Source: Candidatus Methylomirabilales bacterium (lineage in GTDB: Bacteria; Methylomirabilota; Methylomirabilia; Methylomirabilales; CSP1-5). From it: a stretch of DNA of 49,701 bases. The stretch spans positions 1 through 49,701 of the forward strand of contig JBFHXD010000003.1 of assembly GCA_041599135.1 (NCBI GenBank). The letters are read 5' to 3'. The notes beneath the pieces were generated by a model, which was given only the letters and a program-made list of their open reading frames with translations, ran no database searches and was not told where the DNA came from. Positions 36,060 through 49,428 of the stretch are shown in pieces (positions within the stretch are counted from its first letter, which is position 1; each line of letters starts with the position of its first letter). The translations under genes were made by a program, and so were the position numbers.

Positions 36060-39000
36060 ATGAGGGCCCGAGACATCATGATCACCGAGGTTCACGCGCC
36101 GCTCCCCAAAGCGACGATTACCGAGGTCGAGCGCGAGCAGATTCGCAAGCAGGTCGCGCAGGCCGGCAAGCTCATTGCCCCGAACTGGCCGATCCGTACG
36201 ATCATCGCCCGGAACCCCTTGGCCGGGCTGGAGCACAGGCCGTTTCATGAAGCGGTCCGGGAGGCCCAGGCGATGTTCACCGGGCGGGGCTACTTCGCGC
36301 TCGAAGAATTGCGCGCCCAGTATGCCCGTGGCCGGATCACCAAGGCTGCCCTCCTCCGGGCCCTCCGCCGGTTCACGCCGGAATCCATCACGGGATCGCC
36401 GGTGCACGTGGGAAGTCGCCGGATCGAGCCCGCCGAGATTCTCCTCCTCCACCTCCTGTACGGGATTGAGGCGACCGAGCCGGCCATTTTTCAGTGGCGG
36501 GTCCGCGAGGAAGGGGTAACCCAGCGGCTTCGCCAAGATCTCCCTGCCGAGGTGAAGGAGCGGCTCCTGGATCGGGCGCGGGGCGAGCGTACCAAGAATG
36601 CGGGCCGGGGTGACGCCATCCGAGGAGATTCCACGCGGGATCTGGAAGCCGACTATGCTGCGTCGCTCTGGATGGCTACCCTGACGGCCCTCAGCCATGC
36701 CGGGATGCCCGATGAGAAAGCCGACACGCGGCAGGCTGCGTCTGCAGCGGAGACGCTCCCCCCTCCGTGGCGTACGAAGACGGTAGGCGAATGGCTCGAG
36801 GCGCTCACCGGGATGAATGTTGTGGAGCAGCTCAACGAGCACATGATCAAGTGGTGCACCGCTTTTCTGGATGAGGGGTTAGCAGGATGGGGGATGCCGG
36901 AACGCGCCCGGGGATTCTACCTCGCGTGGCGGGACGTAGCCCGGCATGACCGGTCTGTGAGGTTCCTGGGCCTCCGGGACTTTCGTCGTAGGGTTCAGGC
37001 CCTCCCGGCAGACCCGGAGGAGACCGTTGTCACTTGCCTTCGCACGCTGGGTATTCCGGACGATCATTGGACCGACTACTTCGCTCGGCACCTGGCTCAT
37101 CTCTCCGGCTGGGCCGGGCTGATCCGGTGGCGGGCGTTGAACCCGGATTATCCCTGGCAGCAGGAGCATCCCGTTGACCTCGTGGAGTACCTGGCGGTGC
37201 GTCTCTTCTATGAGGTGGCATTGGTTCAGAGCATCTGCCGCACCACCTGGGGCATTGACGGCAGCCTTCCGGCCCTTCTGGCTTCCATCCAGACCCACCC
37301 GGCCCATACCGGAGCCGGGACTATGACGCACGACTCGACGCACGCCGAGTCTCCCTCTTGGATCTGCCGGGATGCGTGGCGCCTGTTTCAGCTTGCCCAG
37401 TTCCTCGAGCTCTCTCCCGACGATGTCCGGGGACTGTCCGCCCAGGCTATCCAAGCACTGCTTGGACTCTTAGATGCGCTTCCCCCGGAGGCGCAGGTCC
37501 CGGTCTGGCAAGAGGCTTATGAGGACGAGTACCAGCAGGAGCTGCTGGGCAAGCTGGCGGCAAACTCCCCCCGGCCACGGTGGGATGGGCGGCCTGAGGC
37601 TCAGGCGGCCTTCTGCATTGATGTGCGGTCAGAGGTTCTCCGCCGACACCTGGAGGCGCAAGGGCCGTATGAAACACTGGGCTTTGCCGGCTTCTTTGGG
37701 GTCCTGCTCGCCTTTACCCCGTTTGACCGGGCAGACACGCAGTTGCTCTGCCCGGTGATTGTCCAACCGAAGTATGCGGCCACCGAAATTCCGCGCACGG
37801 ATCACGATCGAACCTTGCGCCACTACGTCTCTGGGTCCCGGTGGCGTCAGGTGATGCATCACGTGCTGCATGACCTCAAACACAGCCCGCTTGCTTCGTT
37901 TCTGACGGTGGATTTCCTTGGGTGGCTGTTCGGTCTGGCGCTGGTAGGCAAGACGCTCGCCCGGGTGCCGTATGCCCGGTTCAGGGAGCAGCTCCACCGA
38001 TGGCTGGGGCAATCGGTCGCCACCCGCATCCCGATCGAGAAGCCGAGCGACCAGGAGAGTGAAGCGGGCCTCAAGCCGCGCGAGCGGGCTGCCGCCCTCG
38101 GGATCACCGCCCAGGGCTTTACGCTGGCTGAGCAGGCAACAATCGTCGAGACCGCCCTGCGGCTCATGGGCCTTACCCGGACCTTCGCCCGGCTTGTGCT
38201 TTTCTGCGGGCATGGGAGCACGTCGGATAATAACCCCTTTGTCGGCGCGCTGGACTGCGGGGCCTGTGGGGGAAGTCCGGGGGGACCCAACGCCCGAGTC
38301 CTCGCGTCTATGGGCAACCAGCCGGCGGTGCGGGCGCTGCTGCGCGAGCGCGGCCTTGCCATTCCCGAGGACACCTGGTTCCTCGCAGGCCAGCATGACA
38401 CGACCCGGGATCAGGTGCGCCTCTACGATCTTGAAGATCTCCCCGCCTCCCACTGGCAGGATGTGCGGCGGCTCCTCCAGGCCCTTGAGCGGGCCGGGGG
38501 CCTGGCAGCTCAGGAACGGTGTACCCGGCTGCCTGGGGCACCGAAATCCTCTGCGGTGGAGTCCGTGCGCCATGTCCACCAACGGAGCGTGGACTGGGCG
38601 CAGGTCCGGCCCGAATGGGGCCTCTCCGGGAATGCAGCCTACATTATCGGGCAACGCAGCATAAGCTACGGGCTGAACCTTGAGGGCCGCGTCTTTATGC
38701 ATTCCTACGATCCCGAGCCGGATGAAGACGGCCAGCGGCTGGAGTTTCTCATGACTGCCCCGGGGGTGGTCATGCAGATGATCAGCGCGCAGTACTACTT
38801 CTCCGCGGTGGACCCCTGGATCTACGGGAGCGGGAGCAAGGTGATCCACAATGTGGTGGGTGGGATTGGAGTGATGCTGGGCCGCCAGAGCGATCTGATG
38901 ACCGGCCTCCCGCTCCAGTCGCTAATGGACGGTCGTGTTCCTTTCCACGAGCCGCTGCGACTGTTGGCCATTATTGAAGCCCCTCTTGCCCGCATCGAGG

Positions 39001-39137
39001 CGATCATTCGGCGCCATCAAATTCTCCAGCACTTCTTCAACAACCAGTGGGTGCACCTGGTGGCGCTGGATCCCCGTACCCGGGAGTTCTCCCGCTACGG
39101 GCCGGGAGGAGGCTGGGTCCGCTGGAGCCCGGAGTGA
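36060..39137 (+). CDS. dabA: DUF2309 (UPF0753) inorganic carbon transporter subunit DabA
   Basis: APNWP....ARNPL; Zn ligands FCIDVRSE, CGHGS, LDCGACGG; DWAQVRPEWGL; GSGSK.IHNV; HEPLRL. Confidence 0.95.
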   Translation: MRARDIMITEVHAPLPKATITEVEREQIRKQVAQAGKLIAPNWPIRTIIARNPLAGLEHRPFHEAVREAQAMFTGRGYFALEELRAQYARGRITKAALLRALRRFTPESITGSPVHVGSRRIEPAEILLLHLLYGIEATEPAIFQWRVREEGVTQRLRQDLPAEVKERLLDRARGERTKNAGRGDAIRGDSTRDLEADYAASLWMATLTALSHAGMPDEKADTRQAASAAETLPPPWRTKTVGEWLEALTGMNVVEQLNEHMIKWCTAFLDEGLAGWGMPERARGFYLAWRDVARHDRSVRFLGLRDFRRRVQALPADPEETVVTCLRTLGIPDDHWTDYFARHLAHLSGWAGLIRWRALNPDYPWQQEHPVDLVEYLAVRLFYEVALVQSICRTTWGIDGSLPALLASIQTHPAHTGAGTMTHDSTHAESPSWICRDAWRLFQLAQFLELSPDDVRGLSAQAIQALLGLLDALPPEAQVPVWQEAYEDEYQQELLGKLAANSPRPRWDGRPEAQAAFCIDVRSEVLRRHLEAQGPYETLGFAGFFGVLLAFTPFDRADTQLLCPVIVQPKYAATEIPRTDHDRTLRHYVSGSRWRQVMHHVLHDLKHSPLASFLTVDFLGWLFGLALVGKTLARVPYARFREQLHRWLGQSVATRIPIEKPSDQESEAGLKPRERAAALGITAQGFTLAEQATIVETALRLMGLTRTFARLVLFCGHGSTSDNNPFVGALDCGACGGSPGGPNARVLASMGNQPAVRALLRERGLAIPEDTWFLAGQHDTTRDQVRLYDLEDLPASHWQDVRRLLQALERAGGLAAQERCTRLPGAPKSSAVESVRHVHQRSVDWAQVRPEWGLSGNAAYIIGQRSISYGLNLEGRVFMHSYDPEPDEDGQRLEFLMTAPGVVMQMISAQYYFSAVDPWIYGSGSKVIHNVVGGIGVMLGRQSDLMTGLPLQSLMDGRVPFHEPLRLLAIIEAPLARIEAIIRRHQILQHFFNNQWVHLVALDPRTREFSRYGPGGGWVRWSPE

Positions 39138-39148
39138 CTGGAGGTGCC

Positions 39149-39637
39149 ATGACTCGGAGAACCCGCAGCATCATCGTGAACACCTTGGTGTTGTTCGGGA
39201 TCTGGCTGCTCTTCTCTGGACAGCTAGAACCCTTCTATGTGGGAGCCGGGCTTGGTTCGGCTCTGTTGGTGGCCTGGCTTCGAGTCGGCTTGCCGGCCTT
39301 GCCCGCGTCGCCATTTCCATGGCGGCGTCTCCTACTCTATGTGCCGTGGCTGTTCTCCCGCATCATCCTGGCGAACCTCCATGTCGCCGCGATCATCTTC
39401 AATCCGCGTCTGCCCATCGCGCCGAAGATTTTCCGCTACCGGACAGCGCTGCGTGATCCCCGGGCGGTGGTATTGCTGGCGAACTCGATTACGCTCACGC
39501 CCGGGACGATCACGGTTGGGGTGTCTCAAGACACACTCGTGGTGCATGCCCTGGATGCCGACTCGGCGGGGGCTATCCTCAACAACACGCTAGAGCGGAA
39601 GATCGCTCCCGTGTTCACCGAGCTGCGGGAGGGCTGA
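39149..39637 (+). CDS. mrpE: Mrp/Mnh antiporter subunit E
   Basis: Start re-called at ATG 39149 (GGAGGT); LANSITLTPGTITV...VHAL. Confidence 0.93.
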   Translation: MTRRTRSIIVNTLVLFGIWLLFSGQLEPFYVGAGLGSALLVAWLRVGLPALPASPFPWRRLLLYVPWLFSRIILANLHVAAIIFNPRLPIAPKIFRYRTALRDPRAVVLLANSITLTPGTITVGVSQDTLVVHALDADSAGAILNNTLERKIAPVFTELREG

Positions 39638-39903
39638 TGCAGACATTCTTCTTTGCTGTCCTGCTGACCATCGTGATCCTCGCGCTGGTCTACCTCTTCC
39701 GTATGGTTTTCGGGCCGACCCTGTTTGACCGGCTCCTCGGCCTGAATGGGATCTCGAACAAGGCCATCCTGATCCTGGTTCTCATCGGGACGCTGTATGA
39801 GCGCCTGGACATCTTTGTGGACATTTCCGTGGGGTATGCGCTCCTGAACCTTGTTGGGGCCGTGGCCGTCGCCAAGTTTCTGGAGCTGAAAGGGATGCCG
39901 TAA
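39637..39903 (+). CDS. mrpF: Mrp/Mnh antiporter subunit F
   Basis: RMVFGPTLFDR..., three TM helices. Confidence 0.93.
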   Translation: MQTFFFAVLLTIVILALVYLFRMVFGPTLFDRLLGLNGISNKAILILVLIGTLYERLDIFVDISVGYALLNLVGAVAVAKFLELKGMP

Positions 39904-40212
39904 ATGAACATCGTCGTGATCCTGCTCATCCTTTCTGGGCTGTTTTTCCTGGTGGGTGCGGCGATCGGAATGGTGCGGTTGCCCGATGTATTCACCCGTG
40001 CCCATGCCTTGGGGCTCACCGACACCCTCGGCTTGACGCTCGTCCTGTTCGGCGTTGTCTGCTATCAGGGCTTCTCACTTTCCGCCGTCAAGACCCTGCT
40101 GATCCTGGTGCTCCTCTATCTGTTCAACCCGGTGATCACGCATGTCGCGCTCCGGGCTGCCCTGCGGACGGGCCTCCAGCCCTGGACGCATGAGGAGGGA
40201 GAGGGGGTATGA
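39904..40212 (+). CDS. mrpG: Mrp/Mnh antiporter subunit G
   Basis: GMVRLPDVFTRAHA...DTLG, NPVITH. Confidence 0.93.
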   Translation: MNIVVILLILSGLFFLVGAAIGMVRLPDVFTRAHALGLTDTLGLTLVLFGVVCYQGFSLSAVKTLLILVLLYLFNPVITHVALRAALRTGLQPWTHEEGEGV

Positions 40213-40736
40213 ACCCCTGGGTCGACGCCGCCTTACTCCTGTTGTTGGTCTTGACCGCATCCGGGGCCATGCTGACCCGGGATCTGATCGGGGCGGTCTT
40301 TATTTTAAGCTGCTATAGCTTCGTGTTAGCGCTGAACTGGGCTTGGGTGGGGGCGGCTGATGTCGCCTTCACTGAAGCGGTCGTCGGGGCGGGTCTCTCC
40401 ACGGTGTTCTTTCTTCTGGCACTGTTTTTGACCTCTCCCAAGGAGGCTCGATCCCCGCATCATCGGGGGCACTGGCTGGCCATCGGGGGGTTGGTCGCCC
40501 TCGGTCTTCTCTTGGTGCGTGCGGCCAAGGATCTCCCCCGCATGGGGGATCCGGCTTCCGCGCCGAATGCCTATCTCACTCCGGTGTACTTGCAACGGAG
40601 CCTGGAGGATACCCTGACGCCCAACGTCGTGACCTCGATCCTTATGGACTACCGAGGATTAGACACCTTAATCGAGACGGCCGTGATCTTCGCCGCCAGC
40701 ATCGGGTGTGCGCTACTGCTTCGGCGAGAGCACTAA
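40209..40736 (+). CDS. Mrp-type subunit (DUF4040 + MbhE-like, equivalent to the MrpA C-terminal part)
   Basis: AADVAFTEAVVGAG; PNVVTSILMDYRGLDTLIE. Confidence 0.88.
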   Translation: MNPWVDAALLLLLVLTASGAMLTRDLIGAVFILSCYSFVLALNWAWVGAADVAFTEAVVGAGLSTVFFLLALFLTSPKEARSPHHRGHWLAIGGLVALGLLLVRAAKDLPRMGDPASAPNAYLTPVYLQRSLEDTLTPNVVTSILMDYRGLDTLIETAVIFAASIGCALLLRREH

Positions 40737-40748
40737 CCGGGGGGCCCG

Positions 40749-41195
40749 ATGCTCCAGCCCTATGACAGCCTGATCACCCAAACCCTCTGCCGGGTTCTGA
40801 TCCCGTGGCTCCAGCTTTACGGCCTCTATGTCCTGGTTCATGGACAGGTGAGTCCAGGGGGTGGCTTCGTAGGGGGAGTGGTCATTGGGGCCACGTTGCT
40901 CCTCAGCCTGCTCGTCTACGGCGATGGCCCGACCTCGCGCATGATTACGCGGTTTGCCACGTACGGAGAGGGGATGGGGCTCCTACTCTTTACCGCCATC
41001 GGGATCCTCTGCCTCCTCTGGGCCGGGGAGTTCTTGGACTATGGGTCGGTACGTGTGCCGGGATGGGAGGGGCCGGTGCGGCGCTGGACAGGAATTCTGC
41101 TCACGATGGTGGGAGTATACGTGGATGTGGCCGTCGTCGCGGTCGCGATTTTTTATAGCCTCTCCCCAAATAATATGGAGCCGGATCATGACTGA
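40749..41195 (+). CDS. mrpB: Mrp/Mnh antiporter subunit B
   Basis: HGQVSPGGGFVGG motif. Confidence 0.9.
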   Translation: MLQPYDSLITQTLCRVLIPWLQLYGLYVLVHGQVSPGGGFVGGVVIGATLLLSLLVYGDGPTSRMITRFATYGEGMGLLLFTAIGILCLLWAGEFLDYGSVRVPGWEGPVRRWTGILLTMVGVYVDVAVVAVAIFYSLSPNNMEPDHD

Positions 41196-41550
41196 GACTC
41201 TGCTCGGCCAGGGGAACTTTTTCGCCTTCATCTTTCTCTTTCTGTGGGGACTCCTGATCATGCTGTCCCATCACAACCTGATCAAAAAGCTGATGGGCAT
41301 GTACTTGGTCCAGACCAGCGTGATTCTCTTTTTTGTGTCGCTCTCGGCGAAGCGGGGGGGCACGGTGGCGATCCTGCTTCCGGACGTCACGCGACCCGAG
41401 GCCTATACGAACCCGCTGCCTCCCGCTCTCATGCTCACCGCGATCGTGGTGGGGGTGGCGACGTTAGGGGTGTCCCTGGCCCTGGCGGTTCGGCTCTACC
41501 GGCAGTTCGGGACGCTTGAGGAGGGGGAGATTTTCAGGAGAATCGGATGA
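41188..41550 (+). CDS. mrpC: Mrp/Mnh antiporter subunit C
   Basis: Start re-called at ATG 41188; NLIKKL; NPLPPALMLTAIVVG. Confidence 0.92.
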   Translation: MTETLLGQGNFFAFIFLFLWGLLIMLSHHNLIKKLMGMYLVQTSVILFFVSLSAKRGGTVAILLPDVTRPEAYTNPLPPALMLTAIVVGVATLGVSLALAVRLYRQFGTLEEGEIFRRIG

Positions 41551-43019
41551 GCATGCATCTCCCGGTCCTGATCTTTGCCTTCCCGTTCTTCACCGCGGTT
41601 GCCATGCCTTTGGTGGGGCTGCGGAAGCGAGCGTGGTGCCGGCCTTTGACCCTGATTGCCCTTTCGGCCATGAGCCTGCTTGCGCTGCTTCTGCTTGCGA
41701 CGGTGGTGGAAGATGGACCAATCCGTTACGCCTTCGGTGGGTGGGCCCCGCCTCTAGGCATCGAGTGGGTGGCAGATGGGCTGAGCAGCCTCATGATGGT
41801 CGCGGTGAGCCTGATTGCGCTGCTCGCGGTGGTCTACGGCGACTCACCGCTTATGCAGGGGCCGCTTGCGAGGAAGACGGCCCTGTATTACACGTTGGTA
41901 CTTCTTATGGTTTCAGGCCTCACGGGGATCGTGCTGACGGCCGATCTGTTTAATCTGTTTGTGTTTCTCGAATTGGCATCACTCTCCGCCTATGCCCTGG
42001 TCGGGGTGGCCGGGGGCCACGCGAGTCTGGCCGCCTTTCGGTACCTCATCCTGGGGACCATCGGAGCCTCGTTGTACCTGCTTGGGGTCAGCTTTGTCTA
42101 CGCGGCCACCGGGACGCTCAACATGGCTGATGCCGCCCAGCGCCTCCCCGCGCTCCTCGCCTCCCCTGTGGTCTTATGGGGAAGCGTGTTGATCATGGTC
42201 GGGTTGGCCATCAAGATGGCGCTCGTCCCCCTGCATGGCTGGCTGCCCGATGCCTACACCCATGCCCCCGATGCGGTAAGCAGCCTCATTGCCCCTCTGA
42301 TGACCAAAGTCTCGCTGTACGCGCTGGTGCGGGTCGCCTACTGGGTCTTTGGCCCCGAAACGATGACGGCACAAATTCCGGTCTTGCCGGTCTTAATCTG
42401 GATCGGGGCCGGCGCCGCCGTGGTTGGCGCCTGCCTGGCCTTGATCCAGGGGCACCTCAAGCGGATGTTCGCCTACGGGGGAATTGCGCACATCGGCTTA
42501 AGCGTCTTAGGGATCGGCCTGGGGAACCGGACCGGGTTTGCCGGTGGCGTCTTTTACCTAATCACCGATGCGGTGATGCAGGCCGGCCTCTTCTTTGTGG
42601 CCGCGGCAGCCAGCTCCATGCATGGAGTGCGCGAGCTGGGGGAACTTGAGCGCCTCCGGGGCCGGATGCCCTGGGTGCTGGCTGCCTTGGTCGTGATCGC
42701 GCTCTCCATGATTGGCTTCCCGCCAACAGGGGGGTTCTTTGGCAAGTGGTACCTCGTGCTGGGGGCCCTGGAACGGCAGCACTATCTGGCCGTGGCAGCC
42801 ATCATCGGGAGCACCGTGCTGACCCTGGCCTACTTCTTCCGGATTTTTGAGAAAGTGTACTTGGGGAGGACCCCGGTTTCGGCTCGCTCCCCCGAGGCGC
42901 TTCCCTGGAGCATGCGCCTTGGCCTCGCTGTTGTCACCCTGGCCCTTCTCATCCTCGGCTTCGGCAGCGACTGGCTCATCGCGCTGATCCAGACCACGGC
43001 TGTACCGAAGGGACTCTAA
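41547..43019 (+). CDS. mrpD: Mrp/Mnh antiporter subunit D
   Basis: GGWAPPLGIE, DLFNLFVFLE, IKMALVPLHGWLPDAY, GFPPTGGFFGKW. Confidence 0.93.
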   Translation: MSMHLPVLIFAFPFFTAVAMPLVGLRKRAWCRPLTLIALSAMSLLALLLLATVVEDGPIRYAFGGWAPPLGIEWVADGLSSLMMVAVSLIALLAVVYGDSPLMQGPLARKTALYYTLVLLMVSGLTGIVLTADLFNLFVFLELASLSAYALVGVAGGHASLAAFRYLILGTIGASLYLLGVSFVYAATGTLNMADAAQRLPALLASPVVLWGSVLIMVGLAIKMALVPLHGWLPDAYTHAPDAVSSLIAPLMTKVSLYALVRVAYWVFGPETMTAQIPVLPVLIWIGAGAAVVGACLALIQGHLKRMFAYGGIAHIGLSVLGIGLGNRTGFAGGVFYLITDAVMQAGLFFVAAAASSMHGVRELGELERLRGRMPWVLAALVVIALSMIGFPPTGGFFGKWYLVLGALERQHYLAVAAIIGSTVLTLAYFFRIFEKVYLGRTPVSARSPEALPWSMRLGLAVVTLALLILGFGSDWLIALIQTTAVPKGL

Positions 43020-43026
43020 GAGGCTC

Positions 43027-45201
43027 ATGTACGCGCTTATTCCGCTCCTTCCGCTTTCCGCCTTTCTCATCATCGGCCTCTTCGGTCGATGGCTCAGAGA
43101 GCGGAGCCACCTCGTCGCCATCCCTGCCGTTTCCCTTTCGTTTGCCTTGTCAGCGGTCGCGTTTCTTGATGTCCTCCTCCATGGCCCCATCCGCCTCCCG
43201 CTCTTCACCTTCATCCACTCGGGAAGCCTCCATATCAATCTCGGCCTCTACATTGATACCCTCACCGCCGTGCTGCTCCTCCTGGTGGCCGGGGTAAGCG
43301 ACCTCGTGTATCGCTTCTCCGCCCGCTACATGCAGGGGGATCCTCGGTATGCCCGATTCTTTGCGGTGATCGCCCTCTTCACCGGGGCCATGCTCCTGCT
43401 GGTGATGAGCAGCAACCTGCTCATCCTGTACCTCTGCTGGGAGCTGATGGCCCTCTGCTCGTACCTGCTCATTTCCCACTGGGCGGAGCGCAAGGCGGCC
43501 TGTGTGGCGGCCACCCGGGCCTTCCTGGTGAATGCCGTGGCGGATGTGGGATTGGGACTCGGGGTGCTCCTCACGTTCCTCACCTTTGGGACCCTTGAGA
43601 TCCCCGAGATCCTGGCGAATGTGCCGGCCCATGTGAGGGAGACGATCACCCCCCTTGGCTGGCTGGGCCTTGATTGGGCTGTGCCGGTCACCACGCTGAT
43701 CCCGCTTCTCTTCTTTATTGGTGCGATGGGGAAGTCGGCCCAAGTGCCGTTCCATGTCTGGCTTCCCTTTGCCATGGAGGCTCCCACGCCGGTCTCCGCC
43801 CTGATTCATGCCGCGACGATGGTGAATGCGGGCGTCTACCTCGTGCTCCGTCTCAGCCCACTCTATGCCCTGGCCCCGGTCGCCATGACCCTGGTGGCGG
43901 TGGTAGGGGCGATAACGGCGCTCGGGGCGGCCATCGTGGCCCTGACCCAGAGCGACATCAAACGGATCCTCGCCTATTCCACGATCAGCCAGCTAGGGTT
44001 CATGATGCTGGCCTGCGGGGTGGGAGCATATGTTGCGGCCATCTTCCATCTGGTCGCCCATGGGGCCCTGAAGGGGTTCCTGTTCCTCTATGCCGGGAAT
44101 GCGCTGCAGCCCTTGGCGGTTGAGCAGGACTTCCACTTGCGCGAGCGGCACAGTCATGCGGCTCCCCATCCTGCCCGTCCCTGGCCGCTGTATCCCGTGG
44201 CCCTCGCCCTGGCCTGCCTTCCGCCGCTGGTGATCGTGTTGAGCAGGTATGATCGGCTGTGGATGGCTACCCAGTTCCCCTCGGCTCGGGTGGCCTTCTT
44301 CGTCATCCTGGCGGTCACGACGGGGCTCACAGCCCTGGCCCTCTTCCGCTGGGTTCTTGCGATCCTTCCGCATCCCACGCCAGTGGAGTGGGGGGATCGC
44401 GTCTTCAGTTCTCCGCCGGGCCTCTTGGGGGGGGTGGCGGTCACCGGCATGATCGCCCTCGCCTGGGCTGGCCTGCTGGCGCTGCTGTGGAGGGGTTTCG
44501 TGCAGGCCCTCTCCCCGGTGCTGGTGCCCTCGCCCCTGACCCCCCCAGACGTCTCGGGTCCGCTGCTCCTCGCGCTGCTCACCGCCGCCATCGGGGGCTT
44601 TGGCCTGGCCATGTACGCCCACGTGCGGCCGTACCAGCCATCCCCGTGGCTTGCCGAGCGTCTGAAGCCCCTCTACGTGCTGGTGCTCAATAAGGGGTAC
44701 TTCGATGAAATCTATGACACTGCCATTGTCCGTCCCACCCTCGCACTGGCTCGGTGGCTCGAACGGGTCGTGGAACGGCAGGGCATTGAAGGGCTGGTGC
44801 ACGGGTTGGCAATGCGGAGCGTGGGGGCAGCTCACTGGGTCTGGCAGCATATCGATCTGCGGGGGATTGACCGGCTGGTGGAGGGAATGGCCGGGTTCAT
44901 GGTCAAGCTCGCCCATTGGCTGTGGTATGGGTTGGATCTGCGGGGGATTGACCGGCTGGTGGAGGGAACGGGCAGGCTCATGGTGAGGTTCGCGTATTGG
45001 CTGTGGTATCGGGTGGATCTGCGGGGGGTTGACCGGACGATCGAGCAGGTGGGACGGGTGACGGAGGTCTCCGCGGAGCACCTGCATCAGATGGAGCCCC
45101 GGCTGCTCCCGCACCTGCTAGGGGTGGTGATCCTTCTCCTGGTCCTGGCGATGGGCATACTCATCCGGTTTGCGAGCATGAACGCATCGCTGCCAAGATA
45201 A
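43027..45201 (+). CDS. NuoL/MrpA/DabB-like proton-translocating subunit with extended lateral helix
   Basis: WELMALCSYLLI, GKSAQVPFHVWLP.AMEAPTPVSALIHAATMV, AYSTISQLG, NKGYFDEIY followed by 27-aa repeats. Confidence 0.9.
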   Translation: MYALIPLLPLSAFLIIGLFGRWLRERSHLVAIPAVSLSFALSAVAFLDVLLHGPIRLPLFTFIHSGSLHINLGLYIDTLTAVLLLLVAGVSDLVYRFSARYMQGDPRYARFFAVIALFTGAMLLLVMSSNLLILYLCWELMALCSYLLISHWAERKAACVAATRAFLVNAVADVGLGLGVLLTFLTFGTLEIPEILANVPAHVRETITPLGWLGLDWAVPVTTLIPLLFFIGAMGKSAQVPFHVWLPFAMEAPTPVSALIHAATMVNAGVYLVLRLSPLYALAPVAMTLVAVVGAITALGAAIVALTQSDIKRILAYSTISQLGFMMLACGVGAYVAAIFHLVAHGALKGFLFLYAGNALQPLAVEQDFHLRERHSHAAPHPARPWPLYPVALALACLPPLVIVLSRYDRLWMATQFPSARVAFFVILAVTTGLTALALFRWVLAILPHPTPVEWGDRVFSSPPGLLGGVAVTGMIALAWAGLLALLWRGFVQALSPVLVPSPLTPPDVSGPLLLALLTAAIGGFGLAMYAHVRPYQPSPWLAERLKPLYVLVLNKGYFDEIYDTAIVRPTLALARWLERVVERQGIEGLVHGLAMRSVGAAHWVWQHIDLRGIDRLVEGMAGFMVKLAHWLWYGLDLRGIDRLVEGTGRLMVRFAYWLWYRVDLRGVDRTIEQVGRVTEVSAEHLHQMEPRLLPHLLGVVILLLVLAMGILIRFASMNASLPR
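44773..45096 (+). repeat. 81-nt (27-aa) intragenic tandem repeat, 4 units
   Basis: GATCTGCGGGGG(A/G)TTGACCGG at 44854, 44935, 45016; degenerate first unit at 44773. Confidence 0.9.
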
Positions 45202-45341
45202 TTCGGCCTCCCCTCGCTCCCGGCGGGCACCCAGCCGACCGAGGGCCACTGGCCCGTCGGCTAGAGCTACCAATGAATGCAGTAAGTCGCAGCTTAACGG
45301 GGCGGCGTTAGAGCTGAGACGGGGGTTTGTGGAGGACTGAC

Positions 45342-46814
45342 ATGGCTGAGTTGTTCCTGAACCATCTGCTCAGCTGGATCATTGTGCTGCCCGTACTGGG
45401 CGCGGGCATTCTTGTCTTTCTCCGCAAGGAAGAGACCATCCGGCGGGTCGCCCTCGGCTGCACCCTCCTCGTTTTTGCGCTCTCCCTGCTCCTCTGGCTC
45501 TGGTTTGATCCGTCCACCGACCGGATGCAATTCGTCGAGCGGGTGGCGTGGATGCCGACCTTCAACATCCAGTACGCCGTCGGAGTGGATGGAATCAGCC
45601 TGCCGTTGATCCTCCTCTCCACCCTGCTCTCGCCCCTCTGCGTGCTCTGCTCGTGGAAAAGCATCGAACACCATCAGAAGGCCTTCTTCATGCTTATCCT
45701 GTTCATCGAGAGCTCCATGCTCTTGACGTTCTCCACGATGGATCTGTTTATGTTCTTCATGCTGTGGGAGACCACGACGATGCCGATGTACTTCATCATC
45801 GGGCTGTGGGGTGGCTCCCGACGGATCATGGCTGCGGCCAAGTTTGCGCTCTTTAGCCTCACCGGAAGCCTGGTGCTCCTGGTCGGGATCTTGGGGCTCT
45901 ACCTCGAGGGCGGCCGCACCTTTGACATGCAGGTGCTGGCATCGCAGCAGTATCCCATCAACGCCCAGCTCTGGATCTTCGCCTGCATGTTCTTCGCCTT
46001 TGCGATCAAGACCCCCATGGTGCCCTTTCATTCGTGGCTCCCCGACGCGCACACCGAGGCCCCGACCGCCGGGAGCGTGATCTTAGCCGGCGTCTTCCTG
46101 AAGATGGGGGGCTATGGCTTTGTGCGCCTCTGCCTCCCCATGCTCCCAGATGCAACCGCAAAGTTTGCGCATGTGCTCCTCTGGCTGTCCGTGCTTGCGA
46201 TTCTCTACGGGGGCTACATGGCCCTCGCCCAGGAGGATCTGAAGCGGCTGGTGGCCTATTCCTCGATTTCGCATATGGGCTTTGTGACGTTAGGGGTCTT
46301 TGTGACGAACCACCAGGGTATCCAGGGGGCGCTCCTTCAGATGTTCAATCACGGAATCACCACCGGAGCGCTGTTCTTAGCGGTGGGGCAGCTCTACGAC
46401 CGTACCCATAAGCGCTTGATCGAGGATTATAGTGGCCTCCATCGGCTCATGCCGCGGTTTACTCTGCTGTTTTCCATCTTTGCGGTGGCCTCGTTTGGGC
46501 TCCCCGGCACGAACAACTTCATCGGCGAGTTCCTGGTGCTGGTGGGGACGGCCCAAGTGAGCCTGCTCATGGTCTTTCTGGCGATAGGCGGGATTCTGCT
46601 CGGTGCAGCTTACCTGCTTTGGATGCTGCAACGGACCGCTCTAGGGCCAGTTGCCACGTCTGGACCGCGCTGGCTTCCGGATCTGACCCCGCGCGAGCTG
46701 GTGACCATGATCCCCCTGGCGGTCTTGGTTTTCTGGATCGGCCTCTACCCGAGACCCTTTCTCAAGCTCATGCAGCCCAGCGTAACCATGTTGCTTCGGG
46801 GCCTTGGCCCTTAG
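45342..46814 (+). CDS. nuoM: NADH-quinone oxidoreductase subunit M-like antiporter subunit
   Basis: Start re-called at ATG 45342; GVDGIS, WE...PMY..IG.WG, KTPMVPFHSWLPDAHTEAPTAGS, AYSSISHMG, GLPG..NFIGEF. Confidence 0.92.
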   Translation: MAELFLNHLLSWIIVLPVLGAGILVFLRKEETIRRVALGCTLLVFALSLLLWLWFDPSTDRMQFVERVAWMPTFNIQYAVGVDGISLPLILLSTLLSPLCVLCSWKSIEHHQKAFFMLILFIESSMLLTFSTMDLFMFFMLWETTTMPMYFIIGLWGGSRRIMAAAKFALFSLTGSLVLLVGILGLYLEGGRTFDMQVLASQQYPINAQLWIFACMFFAFAIKTPMVPFHSWLPDAHTEAPTAGSVILAGVFLKMGGYGFVRLCLPMLPDATAKFAHVLLWLSVLAILYGGYMALAQEDLKRLVAYSSISHMGFVTLGVFVTNHQGIQGALLQMFNHGITTGALFLAVGQLYDRTHKRLIEDYSGLHRLMPRFTLLFSIFAVASFGLPGTNNFIGEFLVLVGTAQVSLLMVFLAIGGILLGAAYLLWMLQRTALGPVATSGPRWLPDLTPRELVTMIPLAVLVFWIGLYPRPFLKLMQPSVTMLLRGLGP

Positions 46815-46845
46815 AGCTCGCCGCTGGCTGGGAACCCTGACCGAG

Positions 46846-47823
46846 ATGCTGGCACTCCTCAGTGAGAATCTCTTAACCCCCCCGATCCTCTTTTTCCTCC
46901 TGGGCTTCGGGGCGCGATTGGTCCGGTCGGATCTCGAGATCCCCCGAGAGATCGCCCGCATCCTGTCGATTTATCTGTTGATGGCCATCGGCTTCAAGGG
47001 GGGCGCGGGGTTGGCCAAAAGCGGCTGGACGGCCCAGGTGGCGTTGTCATGCGTGTTGGTGGTCGTGCTCGGCGTCGTGACCACGCTACTGGCCTTCGTC
47101 ATTCTCCGCAAGGTCCTCGGGCTGACCCGCCTCAATGCTGCCACCATCGCGGCTCATTACGGGTCCGTCAGCGCGGTGACCTTCATTACCGGCGTGGTGT
47201 TCCTCGAGCGGATCGGGGCGACCTACGAAGGCTTCACCGTGGCCCTCATGGCGCTCCTGGAATCGCCGGCCATCTTCGTCGGCATCCTGCTCGGCCGGGA
47301 GCGTGGCGGGCAAGAGGGACCGAAGAAGGCCTGGCTGTCGCGGAAGGTCCTGGAGGAGGCGCTGTTCAACGGCAGCATCGTGGTCCTGAGCGGGGGGATG
47401 GTCATCGGCGCGGTGACGGGGGTCCGGGGGATGGAGATGGTCAAGCCGTTCTTGGTCGACCCGTTCCAGGGCGTGCTCACCCTCTTCCTCCTGGACATGG
47501 GCCTGCTGGCGGCCACGCGCGTCCTCGGGTTCCGCCGGATTCCCTGGGGGCTGATCGGCTTTGGCCTGGCCTGGCCCCCCCTCGGCGCCGCTTTGGGGTT
47601 GTTCACGGGGCTCCTCCTGGGCCTCAGTCCGGGGGGGACGATGCTGGTGATGATCATGGGGGCCAGCGGCTCGTACATCGCGGTCCCGGCCGCCCTCCAC
47701 TTGGGGCTGCCCAGGGCGAACATCGCCTACGGCATCACCCTGGCGTTGGCCGTCACCTTTCCGCTCAATATCTCGTTGGGCATTCCTCTCTATTACTGGA
47801 TCGCAACCCTCGTGGCCGGGTGA
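46846..47823 (+). CDS. sbtA: Sodium-dependent bicarbonate transporter SbtA (DUF897)
   Basis: PPILFF.LG, SIYLL.AIGFKGG, AAHYGSVSAVTF, ESPAI, FLLDMG, SYIAVPA, TFPLNI..GIPLY; start uncertain. Confidence 0.93.
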   Translation: MLALLSENLLTPPILFFLLGFGARLVRSDLEIPREIARILSIYLLMAIGFKGGAGLAKSGWTAQVALSCVLVVVLGVVTTLLAFVILRKVLGLTRLNAATIAAHYGSVSAVTFITGVVFLERIGATYEGFTVALMALLESPAIFVGILLGRERGGQEGPKKAWLSRKVLEEALFNGSIVVLSGGMVIGAVTGVRGMEMVKPFLVDPFQGVLTLFLLDMGLLAATRVLGFRRIPWGLIGFGLAWPPLGAALGLFTGLLLGLSPGGTMLVMIMGASGSYIAVPAALHLGLPRANIAYGITLALAVTFPLNISLGIPLYYWIATLVAG

Positions 47824-47837
47824 GGGAAGGGGCAATC

Positions 47838-48161
47838 ATGAAAGAATTGGTGCCGATGCAGAAGCTGGAGATCGTCATCGAGCGATTGCAGCTCGGCCAG
47901 GTGCTCGACATCGTCGAGGCGGCCGGGGCCTCCGGGTACACGGTCCTGCGCGCCGTCCAGACGATGGGGCGTCGCCACGGGGTGCGGGAAGACGTGGGTC
48001 TTGGCGAACTCGAGCGAACGAAACTGGTCCTGGTCGTGGCCCGCCCGCCCGTGATCGCTCGGATCATCGAGGAGGTCACTCCCATCCTGGTCGATTTCCC
48101 CGGGACGCTCTGGGTGTCGGATGTCCAGATGAAGGTGATGGACGTGGGCGAGGGGGATTGA
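47838..48161 (+). CDS. sbtB: P-II-like SbtB regulator
   Basis: MQKLEIVIE...GASGYTV....GRRHG...VSDV; directly after sbtA. Confidence 0.85.
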   Translation: MKELVPMQKLEIVIERLQLGQVLDIVEAAGASGYTVLRAVQTMGRRHGVREDVGLGELERTKLVLVVARPPVIARIIEEVTPILVDFPGTLWVSDVQMKVMDVGEGD

Positions 48162-48321: not shown

Positions 48322-49428
48322 GTGGAGCCATCCCAGGCTGACCTCAAAAAGACACCCCTGAATTCGGTCCACCGCCAGATGGGGGCCCGGATGGTCCCAT
48401 TTGGAGGCTGGGATATGCCTGTCCAATACTCCGGCATCCTAGAGGAGCACCGGGCCGTCCGGGGGACCGCCGGCCTGTTCGACATCAGCCACATGGGCGA
48501 GATCGAGTTTCGCGGCCCCGAGGCCCTGACGGCCGTCCAGGGGCTGGTGACCAACGACCCTGCCCGACTTGACATAGGGCAGGTCCAATACGCGGCCCTC
48601 TGCTACGACAATGGGACCTTTGTGGATGACCTCACGGTGTACAAGTTGGCTGATGATCACTTCATGTTCACAGTCAATGCGTCCAATATTGAGAAGGACT
48701 ATCAGTGGATCAAGGCGCATGTTCCCGGGGGGGTCGAGGTCAGGAACATCAGCGATGAGACCGCGCTCCTGGCGCTGCAAGGCCCCAAAGCGCCCGATAT
48801 CCTGCAAAAACTCACTCCGGTAGATCTCAGCCAAATCAGGTATTACTGGTTCCGGCCCGGCAAGGTGCTGGATGCCGATGCCCTGATTTCTCGGACCGGA
48901 TATACGGGCGAAGACGGCTTTGAGATCTATCTCTCATCGGAAAAGGCCGAGTCCCTGTGGAACCGCCTGCTGGCGGAGGGCCGTTCGTTCGGGATTCTCC
49001 CGGTCGGACTAGGGGCCAGAGATACGTTACGGCTGGAGGCCAAGATGGCCCTCTACGGCAACGATATTGACGATAAGCACACGGTGCTGGAGGCCGATCT
49101 CGCTTGGATCGTCAAGTTCGAGAAAGGGGATTTCATCGGGCGGACGGCGCTTCAACAGCAGCAGTCAGCTGGGCTCACGCGGAAACTCGTCGGGTTTGAA
49201 ATGGTAGGCCGCGGAATCGCCCGCCCGCATTACACCGTCGTTGTGGATGGGCGGGAGATCGGCGAAGTGACCAGCGGTGGTCCGTCCCCGACCTTGGGCA
49301 AGAACATCGGACTTGCATACGTGGCGATCGCGCATGCCGCGATCGGGACCGAGATCAACATCCTGATCCGGGGTGAACCGGTTCAGGCCACGATCGTTCC
49401 CGCCCCCTTTTATAAGCGCAAGAGATAG
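48322..49428 (+). CDS. gcvT: Glycine cleavage system aminomethyltransferase T
   Basis: FGGWDMPVQY, GLFDISHMGE, SRTGYTGEDGFE, GLGARDTLRLEA, PFYKR. Confidence 0.98.
   Translation: MEPSQADLKKTPLNSVHRQMGARMVPFGGWDMPVQYSGILEEHRAVRGTAGLFDISHMGEIEFRGPEALTAVQGLVTNDPARLDIGQVQYAALCYDNGTFVDDLTVYKLADDHFMFTVNASNIEKDYQWIKAHVPGGVEVRNISDETALLALQGPKAPDILQKLTPVDLSQIRYYWFRPGKVLDADALISRTGYTGEDGFEIYLSSEKAESLWNRLLAEGRSFGILPVGLGARDTLRLEAKMALYGNDIDDKHTVLEADLAWIVKFEKGDFIGRTALQQQQSAGLTRKLVGFEMVGRGIARPHYTVVVDGREIGEVTSGGPSPTLGKNIGLAYVAIAHAAIGTEINILIRGEPVQATIVPAPFYKRKR

Follow-up and report, generated by a model that had tools for sequence, protein, structure and literature searches.

A modular, repeat-built lateral helix with three modules beyond canonical NuoL in a DabA-Mrp-like gene cluster

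The window analysed here is a stretch of 49,701 nucleotides (nt) from a Candidatus Methylomirabilales bacterium (assembly GCA_041599135.1, contig JBFHXD010000003.1, positions 1 to 49,701 of the forward strand), and it carries a cluster of genes (36060-48161) for a DabA protein, Mrp-type subunits, a NuoL-like and a NuoM-like subunit and a bicarbonate transporter. The subject of this report is the NuoL-like gene of this cluster, an open reading frame (ORF) of 724 codons without a stop (43027..45201, on the plus strand, as are the parts of the cluster listed below). It encodes P0001, a NuoL/NdhF-type antiporter-like subunit of 724 amino acids (aa) recognised by Pfam families PF00662 and PF00361 and by TIGR01974. 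The lateral helix (HL) of this protein is modular and built from repeats, with three modules over canonical NuoL.

The HL opens with an anchor row, NKGYFDEIYD...ARWLERV (44689..44769, residues 555-581), which is a conserved motif with a low ratio of non-synonymous to synonymous changes (dN/dS). Its NKGYFDEIY signature occupies residues 555-563 (nt 44689-44715), where Y558 and D560 are invariant in the three homologue alignments A1, A2 and A3, N555 is invariant in A1 and A2, and F559 and E561 are invariant in A1 and A3. Four units follow, starting at residues 582, 609, 636 and 663 (nt 44770, 44851, 44932 and 45013), at a spacing of exactly 27 aa or 81 nt. Unit 1 (VERQGIEGLVHG...HWVWQH; 44770..44850, residues 582-608) is the most diverged copy, unit 2 (IDLRGIDRLVEG...HWLWYG; 44851..44931, residues 609-635) is the one absent from a three-unit allele described below, unit 3 (LDLRGIDRLVEG...YWLWYR; 44932..45012, residues 636-662) is defined by Tandem Repeats Finder and by in-register identity, and unit 4 (VDLRGVDRTIEQ...HLHQM; 45013..45093, residues 663-689) is the terminal unit. 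Each module opens with D-x-R-G-(I/V)-D, and W-L-W closes every module except the last. The form of unit 4 is kept in all the tail classes found among relatives, and this unit is the counterpart of the single unit of canonical NuoL. The tail ends with an EPR motif and the last transmembrane helix, TM16 (45094..45186, residues ~690-720, in a helix predicted at 669-720 or 671-720), with P691, R692 and H696 invariant, and E690 nearly so, in A3.

An earlier reading of the letters, the original prediction, had announced four 27-aa units at exact 81-nt spacing after NKGYFDEIY, and the translation and the identities between units bear this out; it had also located the repeat correctly, except that its start at 44773 was one codon late, since unit 1 starts at 44770. 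Tandem Repeats Finder detects the 81-nt period over 44854-45036 (2.3 copies, 88% matches, zero indels). The in-register identity of units 2 and 3 amounts to 85% at the DNA level and 67% at the protein level, with a longest exact run of 34 nt, whereas units 1 and 2 share 57% and 41%, and units 3 and 4 share 59% and 41%, respectively. The DNA background, taken from in-frame 81-nt windows of the remainder of the same ORF compared with units 2 and 3 (n=1054), has a mean identity of 29.5% and a maximum of 48%, and the protein background, taken from 27-aa windows compared with all four units (n=2108), has a mean of 7% and a maximum of 26%. All adjacent unit pairs lie above the background maximum, and the repeat of P0001 is real and far above chance.

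The remainder of the protein is that of a NuoL-type subunit. P0001 scores 482.5 bits against TIGR01974 NDH_I_L (cut-off 407.5), in a match that stops at residue 602; it stays under the cut-off of the NuoL equivalog NF005141 (481.5 vs 556), far under every MrpA equivalog cut-off (e.g. NF009287, 242.5 vs 937), and does not reach that of the NdhF3 model TIGR01960 ndhF3_CO2 (172 bits vs 588.7). Its best matches in the Protein Data Bank (PDB) are NuoL/ND5/NdhF chains (8qby_L, E 1.6e-84), followed at a greater distance by MrpA (7qru_A, 1.5e-45) and DabB2 (9rd0_B, 5.3e-40). An AlphaFold2 (AF2) model built on a 33-sequence alignment, with a mean predicted local distance difference test (pLDDT) of 73.5, matches the NuoL fold, with TM15 and the beginning of the HL: residues 1-607 align with 8e9g_L (Z 49.5, root mean square deviation (rmsd) 5.8, 497 aligned) and with residues 3-585 of the Escherichia coli NuoL 7p7l_L (Z 45.5, rmsd 5.4, 501 aligned). 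This superposition (VIA-align) spans model residues 1-611 only, so that it bears on the canonical part and says nothing on the extra modules. Because residues 1-607 superpose on residues 3-585 of 7p7l_L, the stretch through unit 1 covers NuoL before its last helix, and units 2-4 are extra. That an ordinary NuoL has one unit, as previously stated, fits this superposition, the end of the TIGR01974 match at residue 602 and the 81-aa tails of 16 of the 85 relatives discussed below; a NuoL-like protein whose HL has three modules beyond the canonical one is thus what profiles, fold and repeat together describe. P0001 has a long tail, the last element of which is a 16th helix in the AF2 models, and the sequence similarity of the protein to DabB2 (9rd0_B) is weaker than that to NuoL. 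Elsewhere in the protein, a His/Pro/Arg-rich loop between transmembrane helices (residues 362-382) is variable among homologues and has a pLDDT <50 in both of the AF2 models made.

The cluster around P0001 begins with the gene of DabA, a putative CO2-hydrating subunit of 1025 aa (36060..39137; PF10070, E 9e-274, profile positions 1-747), which lies seven genes upstream of the NuoL-like gene in the same operon, and which matches DabA2 in the PDB (9rd0_A, E 5.6e-117). It is followed by orf118, in the MrpE position and so labelled by position only (39237..39593); this 118-aa protein has zero Pfam or NCBIfam matches, and only L084 among the related loci gives a blastp match at E<=1e-8. Next come an MrpF-like protein of 88 aa (39637..39903; PF04066 MrpF_PhaF, E 5.3e-13), an MrpG-like protein of 102 aa (39904..40212; PF03334 PhaG_MnhG_YufB, E 2.6e-21) and an MbhD/MbhE-like protein of 175 aa (40209..40736; PF13244 and PF20501; NF009159, 158 bits, cut-off 141). 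The last one aligns to positions ~600-790 of MrpA models and is the equivalent of the MrpA C-terminal domain, so that this DUF4040/MbhDE part is a separate gene here, unlike the fused domain of MrpA. They are followed by an MrpB/MnhB-like protein of 148 aa (40749..41195; PF04039 MnhB, E 3.7e-23), by orf91 in the MrpC/NuoK position, again assigned by position only (41244..41519; 91 aa, zero Pfam or NCBIfam matches, with a homologue in L020), and by an MrpD-like antiporter subunit of 490 aa (41547..43019; PF00361, E 6.9e-56), whose best PDB matches are MbsH/MrpD chains (6u8y_H, 2.7e-56; 7qru_D, 1.4e-53). Downstream of P0001 there is a NuoM/NdhD-type antiporter-like subunit of 495 aa (45327..46814; PF00361 and PF01059; TIGR01972 NDH_I_M, 597.7 bits, cut-off 263.8; PDB 7aqw_M, E 2.6e-125), then an SbtA-type bicarbonate transporter of 339 aa (46804..47823; PF05982 Sbt_1, E 5.8e-107) and a P-II-like protein in the SbtB position, with a putative start (47856..48161; PF00543 P-II, E 4.8e-9). 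The P-II match falls at residues 270-359 of the ORF 47049..48161, the 5' part of which overlaps sbtA. Judging from these assignments, the cluster 36060-48161 looks like one putative carbon-concentrating island, joining a CO2-hydration system to a bicarbonate transporter. A GcvT gene (48322-49428) comes after these DabA-Mrp-L-M-SbtA/P-II-like genes, which are arranged head to tail.

This gene content confirms that only one NuoM-like and one MrpD-like gene are encoded at the locus, as Pfam annotation bears out, and is at odds with the complex I context that had been assumed for the helix, given that the neighbours are DabA, Mrp subunits, the NuoM-like protein and SbtA/SbtB, with zero adjoining nuo genes. 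In principle, P0001 could belong, as its NuoL, to a respiratory complex I whose arm is lengthened by extra NuoM subunits, as it passes TIGR01974 and has NuoL/ND5 chains as its best PDB matches. However, it stays below the NF005141 cut-off, there are no adjoining nuoA-K, nuoN or peripheral-arm genes, and the neighbours here and in relatives are DabA and Mrp proteins, all of which makes such a complex I variant very improbable.

Among known machines, the CO2-uptake module of cyanobacterial NDH-1MS (NdhF3-NdhD3-CupA-CupS) combines NuoL-type and NuoM-type subunits with a CO2-hydrating protein in a comparable way; the hydrating protein here is, however, DabA rather than CupA, and the base module is Mrp-like rather than NDH-1M. 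With the HL of NuoL, Nqo12, ND5 and NdhF, P0001 shares the fold to residue ~607, the Pfam and TIGR families, the anchor motif, the terminal unit and the final transmembrane helix, and it differs in its three extra modules (0-5 in relatives), in their labile copy number and in the absence of a nuo operon. Another relative is DAB2 from Halothiobacillus neapolitanus (PDB 9rd0), a vectorial carbonic anhydrase coupled to the proton motive force, whose NuoL-like subunit DabB2 has 15 transmembrane helices, only a short HL and a rearranged TM12-14 region that takes up the DabA finger (Lo 2026, PMC13144422). The likeness consists of the DabA homologue and of the NuoL-like partner, at the E values given above, and P0001 is, as expected for a DabB, a PF00361 protein encoded with DabA (PF10070) in the same operon. 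Contrary to DabB2, P0001 keeps the full HL, with its extra modules, and TM16, being closer to NuoL, and L subunits of the type found in the window are accompanied by a NuoM-like subunit and usually by a whole Mrp module. With the Mrp (CPA3) antiporters (6z16, 7qru, 7d3u), whose MrpA HL "braces" the complex and connects the TM7 helices (excerpt of PMC7419157), the cluster shares homologues of MrpF, MrpG, MrpB and MrpD and of the MrpA C-terminal domain, but the NuoL-like part and that domain are separate genes here, and the operon also holds an extra NuoM-like gene and DabA. In excerpts on 'Ca. Nitrospira alkalitolerans' (PMC7784846) and on Nitrospirales lineage IV (PMC12342949), nuoL/nuoM-like genes downstream of mrpD are taken as extra Mrp subunits; DabA or DUF2309 has 0 occurrences in both papers, and these same excerpts do not mention a helix repeat. 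The Leptospirillum 'och' operon (PMC9080137), considered as the same cluster, was rejected, since it is an ordinary pair of NuoL-like and DUF2309 genes.

The repeat-tail family to which P0001 belongs is small. A search with the tail region in a 90%-clustered protein collection returned 29 proteins, and when the last 185 residues served as the query of an exhaustive profile-free search, 209 representatives were obtained at E<=0.001, 33 of them at E<=1e-10. Locus scans yielded 80 loci from genome contigs (genome_contigs) and 80 from metagenome contigs (metagenome_contigs). The survey set consists of 103 loci, namely all 80 metagenome loci and the 23 genome loci that share 45-64% identity with the query (L001-L022 and L032), of which L020 and L021 are covered in part and the other 21 almost completely, the 57 remaining genome loci being ordinary NuoL/MrpA relatives that were excluded. 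A complete tail, measured from the anchor motif to the stop codon, could be read in 85 of the 103. These tails are 81 aa long in 16 loci, 108-109 aa in 11, 118-119 aa in five, 132-138 aa in 30, 145 aa in one, 159-163 aa in 14, 168 aa in one, 190 aa in six and 218 aa in one (L002), and 70 of the 85 lie 0 or +1 residue from 81+27n. By length bin, they amount to one unit (16 loci), two (16), three (31), four (15), five (6) and six (1), the tails of 118, 119 and 145 aa belonging to a subfamily in which the units have 26 aa and the end is longer. The closest orthologue of P0001, L084, is 88% identical and also has four units.

The number of units is labile. On a maximum-likelihood tree of the core domain (IQ-TREE quick, LG+G4, repeat columns excluded), comprising 86 rows, that is, the window and all 85 loci with complete tails, at least 19 changes in unit number are required. 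L006 and L118 have identical cores with three and two units, respectively, and sister loci differ in the same manner (L001 and L088, with 5 and 4 units; L005 and L011, with 5 and 3). Two identical units occur within one protein in L005 and L134, and units 2 and 3 of L084 are 98% identical in DNA, which points to a recent duplication or gene conversion. The same variation affects the gene of the window itself, as P0002, a protein of 697 aa from another assembly, equals P0001 minus one unit. Logan contigs of four public runs (X1-X4) were compared with positions 44300-45500. In X2, a 7,949-nt contig is without 81 nt (44854-44934), the junction being ambiguous over the 34-nt shared core, and in X3, which comes from a different study, a contig from a diverged strain (25 letter differences over 1,115 aligned positions) skips 86 nt and has 2 letters in between, which makes the net loss 84 nt. 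X4 covered only the 5' part of the interval. In X1 the repeat region is fragmented: a 107-nt contig (44858-44964) holds the unit-2 body with the repeat core on either side, and the depths are 20.4 for the 34-nt core unitig, 6.4 for the contig bridging unit 2 and 11-14.8 for the flanks, a pattern that fits a mixture of three- and four-unit alleles.

These same contigs bear on whether the fourth unit could be a mis-assembled extra pass through the repeat. The three-unit form occurs in two other assemblies and the X1 contigs break inside the repeat, as such an error would have it; however, the body of unit 2 is distinct from unit 3, at 85% identity, and has the core on both sides in the independent 107-nt contig, and the 88%-identical L084 has four units, as do many other loci with four or more. 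The original prediction had also held an assembly artefact to be unlikely, and with unit 2 bridged in X1 and four units in L084 it now appears the least probable explanation of all those weighed here. Upstream of the repeat, at 44464-44469 and inside an 8-nt tandem repeat (44467-44487), short contigs of X1 and X4 (spanning 44449-44484) are without three single bases; they probably represent another organism or locus, since both of their ends continue into unlike sequence.

Unit number is independent of gene content. The original prediction had taken the helix as a ruler for a membrane arm with extra antiporter modules, and a check set beforehand, whether unit number tracks the number of antiporter-like genes, was run on the 103 loci: unit number varies independently. 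The full set of DabA, MrpF, MrpG, MbhDE, MnhB, MrpD-like, L and M genes is found in every tail class from 81 to 190 aa (for example, in L113/L131/L147, L017/L108/L138, L007/L022/L156, L013/L087/L132 and L005, class by class), so that the ruler fails at the gene level, with the same gene set accompanying one to five units; for the 218-aa tail of L002, with six units, the contig covers only the three antiporter-like genes. Because the set of partner genes is constant across module numbers, units cannot be counted as one per encoded antiporter subunit. A fourth antiporter-like ORF exists in three of the 103 loci, L084 (four units), L096 (three) and L097 (three), lying beside a second DabA in L084 and L096 and on the opposite strand in L097. 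In L084 and L096, where the window has SbtA/SbtB downstream of the M gene, there are a second NuoL-like ORF and a second, longer DabA-like ORF, which look like an ordinary DabB-DabA pair.

Simpler operons also carry multi-unit tails. A second operon type, DabA-L-M without the Mrp small subunits or the MrpD-like gene, has tails of 109-145 aa with 26-aa units, and DabA directly adjoins the L gene in at least nine loci (L006, L106, L111, L112, L114, L116, L133, L140 and L148). In L146 (9995-13720), an L-M pair with a 135-aa three-unit tail stands among unrelated genes (a CitMHS transporter upstream, an AcrB-type pump downstream, and glycosyltransferases), with no DabA in the flanks examined. L-M pairs without DabA in the flanks examined, as in L146, were likewise observed in L009, which has three units, and L101. 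Operons of the DabA-L-M or L-M-only kind thus still have two to three units. Zero co-variation of unit number with the lengths of the DabA, MrpD-like and NuoM-like ORFs was visible by eye in stop-to-stop lengths, DabA measuring ~1011-1067 aa across unit classes. The partners might also have been encoded elsewhere, as previously suggested. PF00361 gives nine further matches in the genome, on contigs C76, C151, C83 and C53, but the ORFs examined on these four contigs look NuoM/NuoN-type, MrpA-type (801 aa) or of other forms, with no orphan NuoM-like gene seen among them, leaving that suggestion unsupported.

Regarding the geometry of the tail, two AF2 runs are available, the second of which was based on alignment A3 (17 same-length four-unit homologues) and is poor overall (mean pLDDT 57.1). 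They place helices at 559-608 (or 540-608), 614-635 (612-635), 639-662 and 669-720 (671-720), so that the helix is unbroken across unit 1 and the breaks, at 609-613 or 609-611, 636-638, and 663-668 or 663-670, coincide with the DLRG boundaries of units 2-4. A unit of 27 residues makes 7.5 helical turns and would be ~40 Å long as a helix. On a continuous helix at 100 degrees per residue, the hydrophobic face lies at ~130 degrees in the anchor row and at ~350, 130, 315 and 132 degrees in units 1-4, flipping by ~180 degrees from unit to unit; a joint is therefore needed at each unit boundary, because a straight rod cannot keep one face on a surface, be it the membrane or a row of subunits. As for constraint, measured as dN/dS between the window and L084, the value for units 1-4 is 0.86 (11.5 synonymous and 30.5 non-synonymous changes), against 0.36 for the core, 0.11 for the anchor row and 0.12 for TM16.

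The interpretation that we favour, with more confidence than doubt, is that of a modular strap helix, prone to recombination, in which the additional modules are tolerated as articulated surface helices. P0001 would serve as NuoL/NdhF-type subunit in an Mrp-like membrane complex linked to DabA, which complex, by homology, may work as a machine for vectorial CO2 hydration driven by an ion gradient. The HL would be the strap between TM15 and TM16, made of the conserved anchor row and then of 27-residue amphipathic modules. Unequal recombination or slippage on the 81-nt repeats would add or remove whole modules in frame, because these are direct repeats of 81 nt, with units 2 and 3 sharing an identical 34-nt core. 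Gain and loss of modules have been frequent in the family and may be ongoing in the source population, where three- and four-unit alleles would both be present. The extra modules are modelled as amphipathic helices lying on the cytoplasmic membrane or on a protein surface, jointed at DxRG, between the constrained anchor row and the constrained TM16. They would be tolerated because the HL presumably acts as a brace of weakly constrained length in this DabA-Mrp-like complex.

Several points weigh against this interpretation. The evidence for an allele mixture in X1 consists of k-mer depths measured on very short contigs, and the absence of a form cannot be demonstrated from contigs; gene content is silent on the stoichiometry of subunits; and the tail pattern found nothing in 16 of the 103 loci, while contig ends cut two more. 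The pLDDT is <50 over residues ~605-693 in both AF2 models, which makes the breaks and the geometry weak evidence, and the dN/dS values come from one pair with few changes and are confounded by gene conversion between units. A further point is the conservation of the internal D..GID and WLW positions, invariant or nearly so in the 17 four-unit homologues (W604-L605-W606, W631-L632-W633 and W658-L659-W660 in A3): as the motif is kept in internal modules across distant clades, it would speak for a function of each module rather than for slack. The last point is the size of the period, as 27 aa is close to the ~26-aa HL insertion tied to one extra NuoM in complex I (excerpt of PMC9040806), as would be expected of a ruler.

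In a different view, each module would dock one antiporter-like subunit, and the arm would contain multiple copies of the NuoM-like or MrpD-like protein. A variant would have the helix pass over the small Mrp subunits and extend to the other protomer of a dimer of the Mrp type. The number of modules would then set the length of the arm and the ion-to-CO2 stoichiometry while gene content stays constant. Apart from the period and the conserved internal motif, the quantisation of 70 of the 85 tails at 81+27n (0 or +1) is in its favour, as is the fact that, in Mrp, a dimer joined via MrpE, every antiporter-like subunit is contacted at its TM7 by the HL (excerpt of PMC7419157). The L-M-only and DabA-L-M systems may be added, as they have two to three units with one partner gene and hence need either extra copies or a helix that is not straight. 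On the other hand, the stoichiometry would have to differ between the identical cores of L006 and L118, between the sisters L001 and L088 and even between alleles of one population; one to five units go with the same gene set; with a flip of ~180 degrees per unit, equivalent docking is possible only if each unit has a joint; the units are under relaxed constraint; and no orphan NuoM-like gene was seen among the ORFs examined on the other contigs. We therefore consider docking of one subunit per module unlikely, and slightly less likely still the stronger proposal that the modules are a true molecular tape measure with which gain and loss of 81-nt repeats tunes the ions spent per CO2 between strains.

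The comparison with complex I is instructive in this respect. In the 2M type, a ~26-aa HL insertion accompanies each extra NuoM, according to the excerpt of PMC9040806, which cites Chadwick 2018, and this agrees with the earlier statement that complex I variants with an extra NuoM lengthen the helix by about this much; the same excerpt also describes NuoL insertions where the complex has no additional pump subunit. The insertion of Nitrospira-type 2M complex I NuoL and of 'Ca. Manganitrophaceae' MrpD2/NuoL (Yu 2022, PMC9040806, as excerpted) has the size of one module. In 2M complex I there is one insertion per extra nuoM gene, whereas in the P0001 family there are up to five extra modules and no extra gene. 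P0001 thus has the HL insertion of a 2M NuoL without a second nuoM in its operon, and its family's modules, unlike the 2M insertion, are recognisable tandem repeats that vary between close relatives. What is already known, then, is the ~26-aa insertion that goes with one extra NuoM, and what is apparently new is an HL built of repeats in variable copy number; no description of a tandem-repeat or variable-copy HL, or of a DabA-Mrp operon, was found in the open-access literature, supplements aside.

A further alternative to the tolerated strap helix is that the modules form a platform for docking or oligomerisation, binding DabA or the P-II-like SbtB, or pairing with a neighbouring complex. The extended helix is specific to L subunits usually encoded with DabA (in most loci with enough flank), alternate units show opposite faces, so that half of them could face away from the membrane, and the unit motif is conserved. 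Nevertheless, L146 and L009 have three units without DabA in the flanks examined, and the length of DabA (~1011-1067 aa) does not follow unit number. A platform of this kind is, in our estimation, improbable, somewhat more so than the tuning of stoichiometry by repeat number.

The length of the lateral helix is commonly taken to match the antiporter-like subunits that it braces, in complex I, in Mrp and in their relatives, and has been used to predict extra pump subunits. The widespread and little-studied DabA-Mrp family breaks this length-to-subunit rule at the gene level. Either the number of subunits is poorly predicted by helix length, which would affect bioenergetic inference from genomes, or these complexes employ one gene product repeatedly, a way of tuning the stoichiometry of a pump that would be new. 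The natural variants with one to six modules provide a ready series for probing the role of the lateral helix.

The cluster, for its part, is a candidate machine by which nitrite oxidisers and other autotrophs would concentrate carbon, and is not so described in the open-access literature searched. Its carriers are metagenome-assembled genomes labelled Nitrospirales, Nitrospinota, Planctomycetota, Acidobacteria/Bryobacterales, Pseudohongiella, some Gammaproteobacteria and others. Among 13 genomes of the same genus as the window, the tail query at E<=1e-8, which could miss a one-unit orthologue, found no orthologue; it gave two weak matches in another family of the same order, covering only the first ~80 query residues. 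DabA (PF10070) is present in four of the 13, in a longer frame (~1280-1384 aa stop-to-stop). Both P0001 and its orthologue in L084 were flagged for unusual residue composition. The cluster may have a patchy distribution or have been acquired horizontally.

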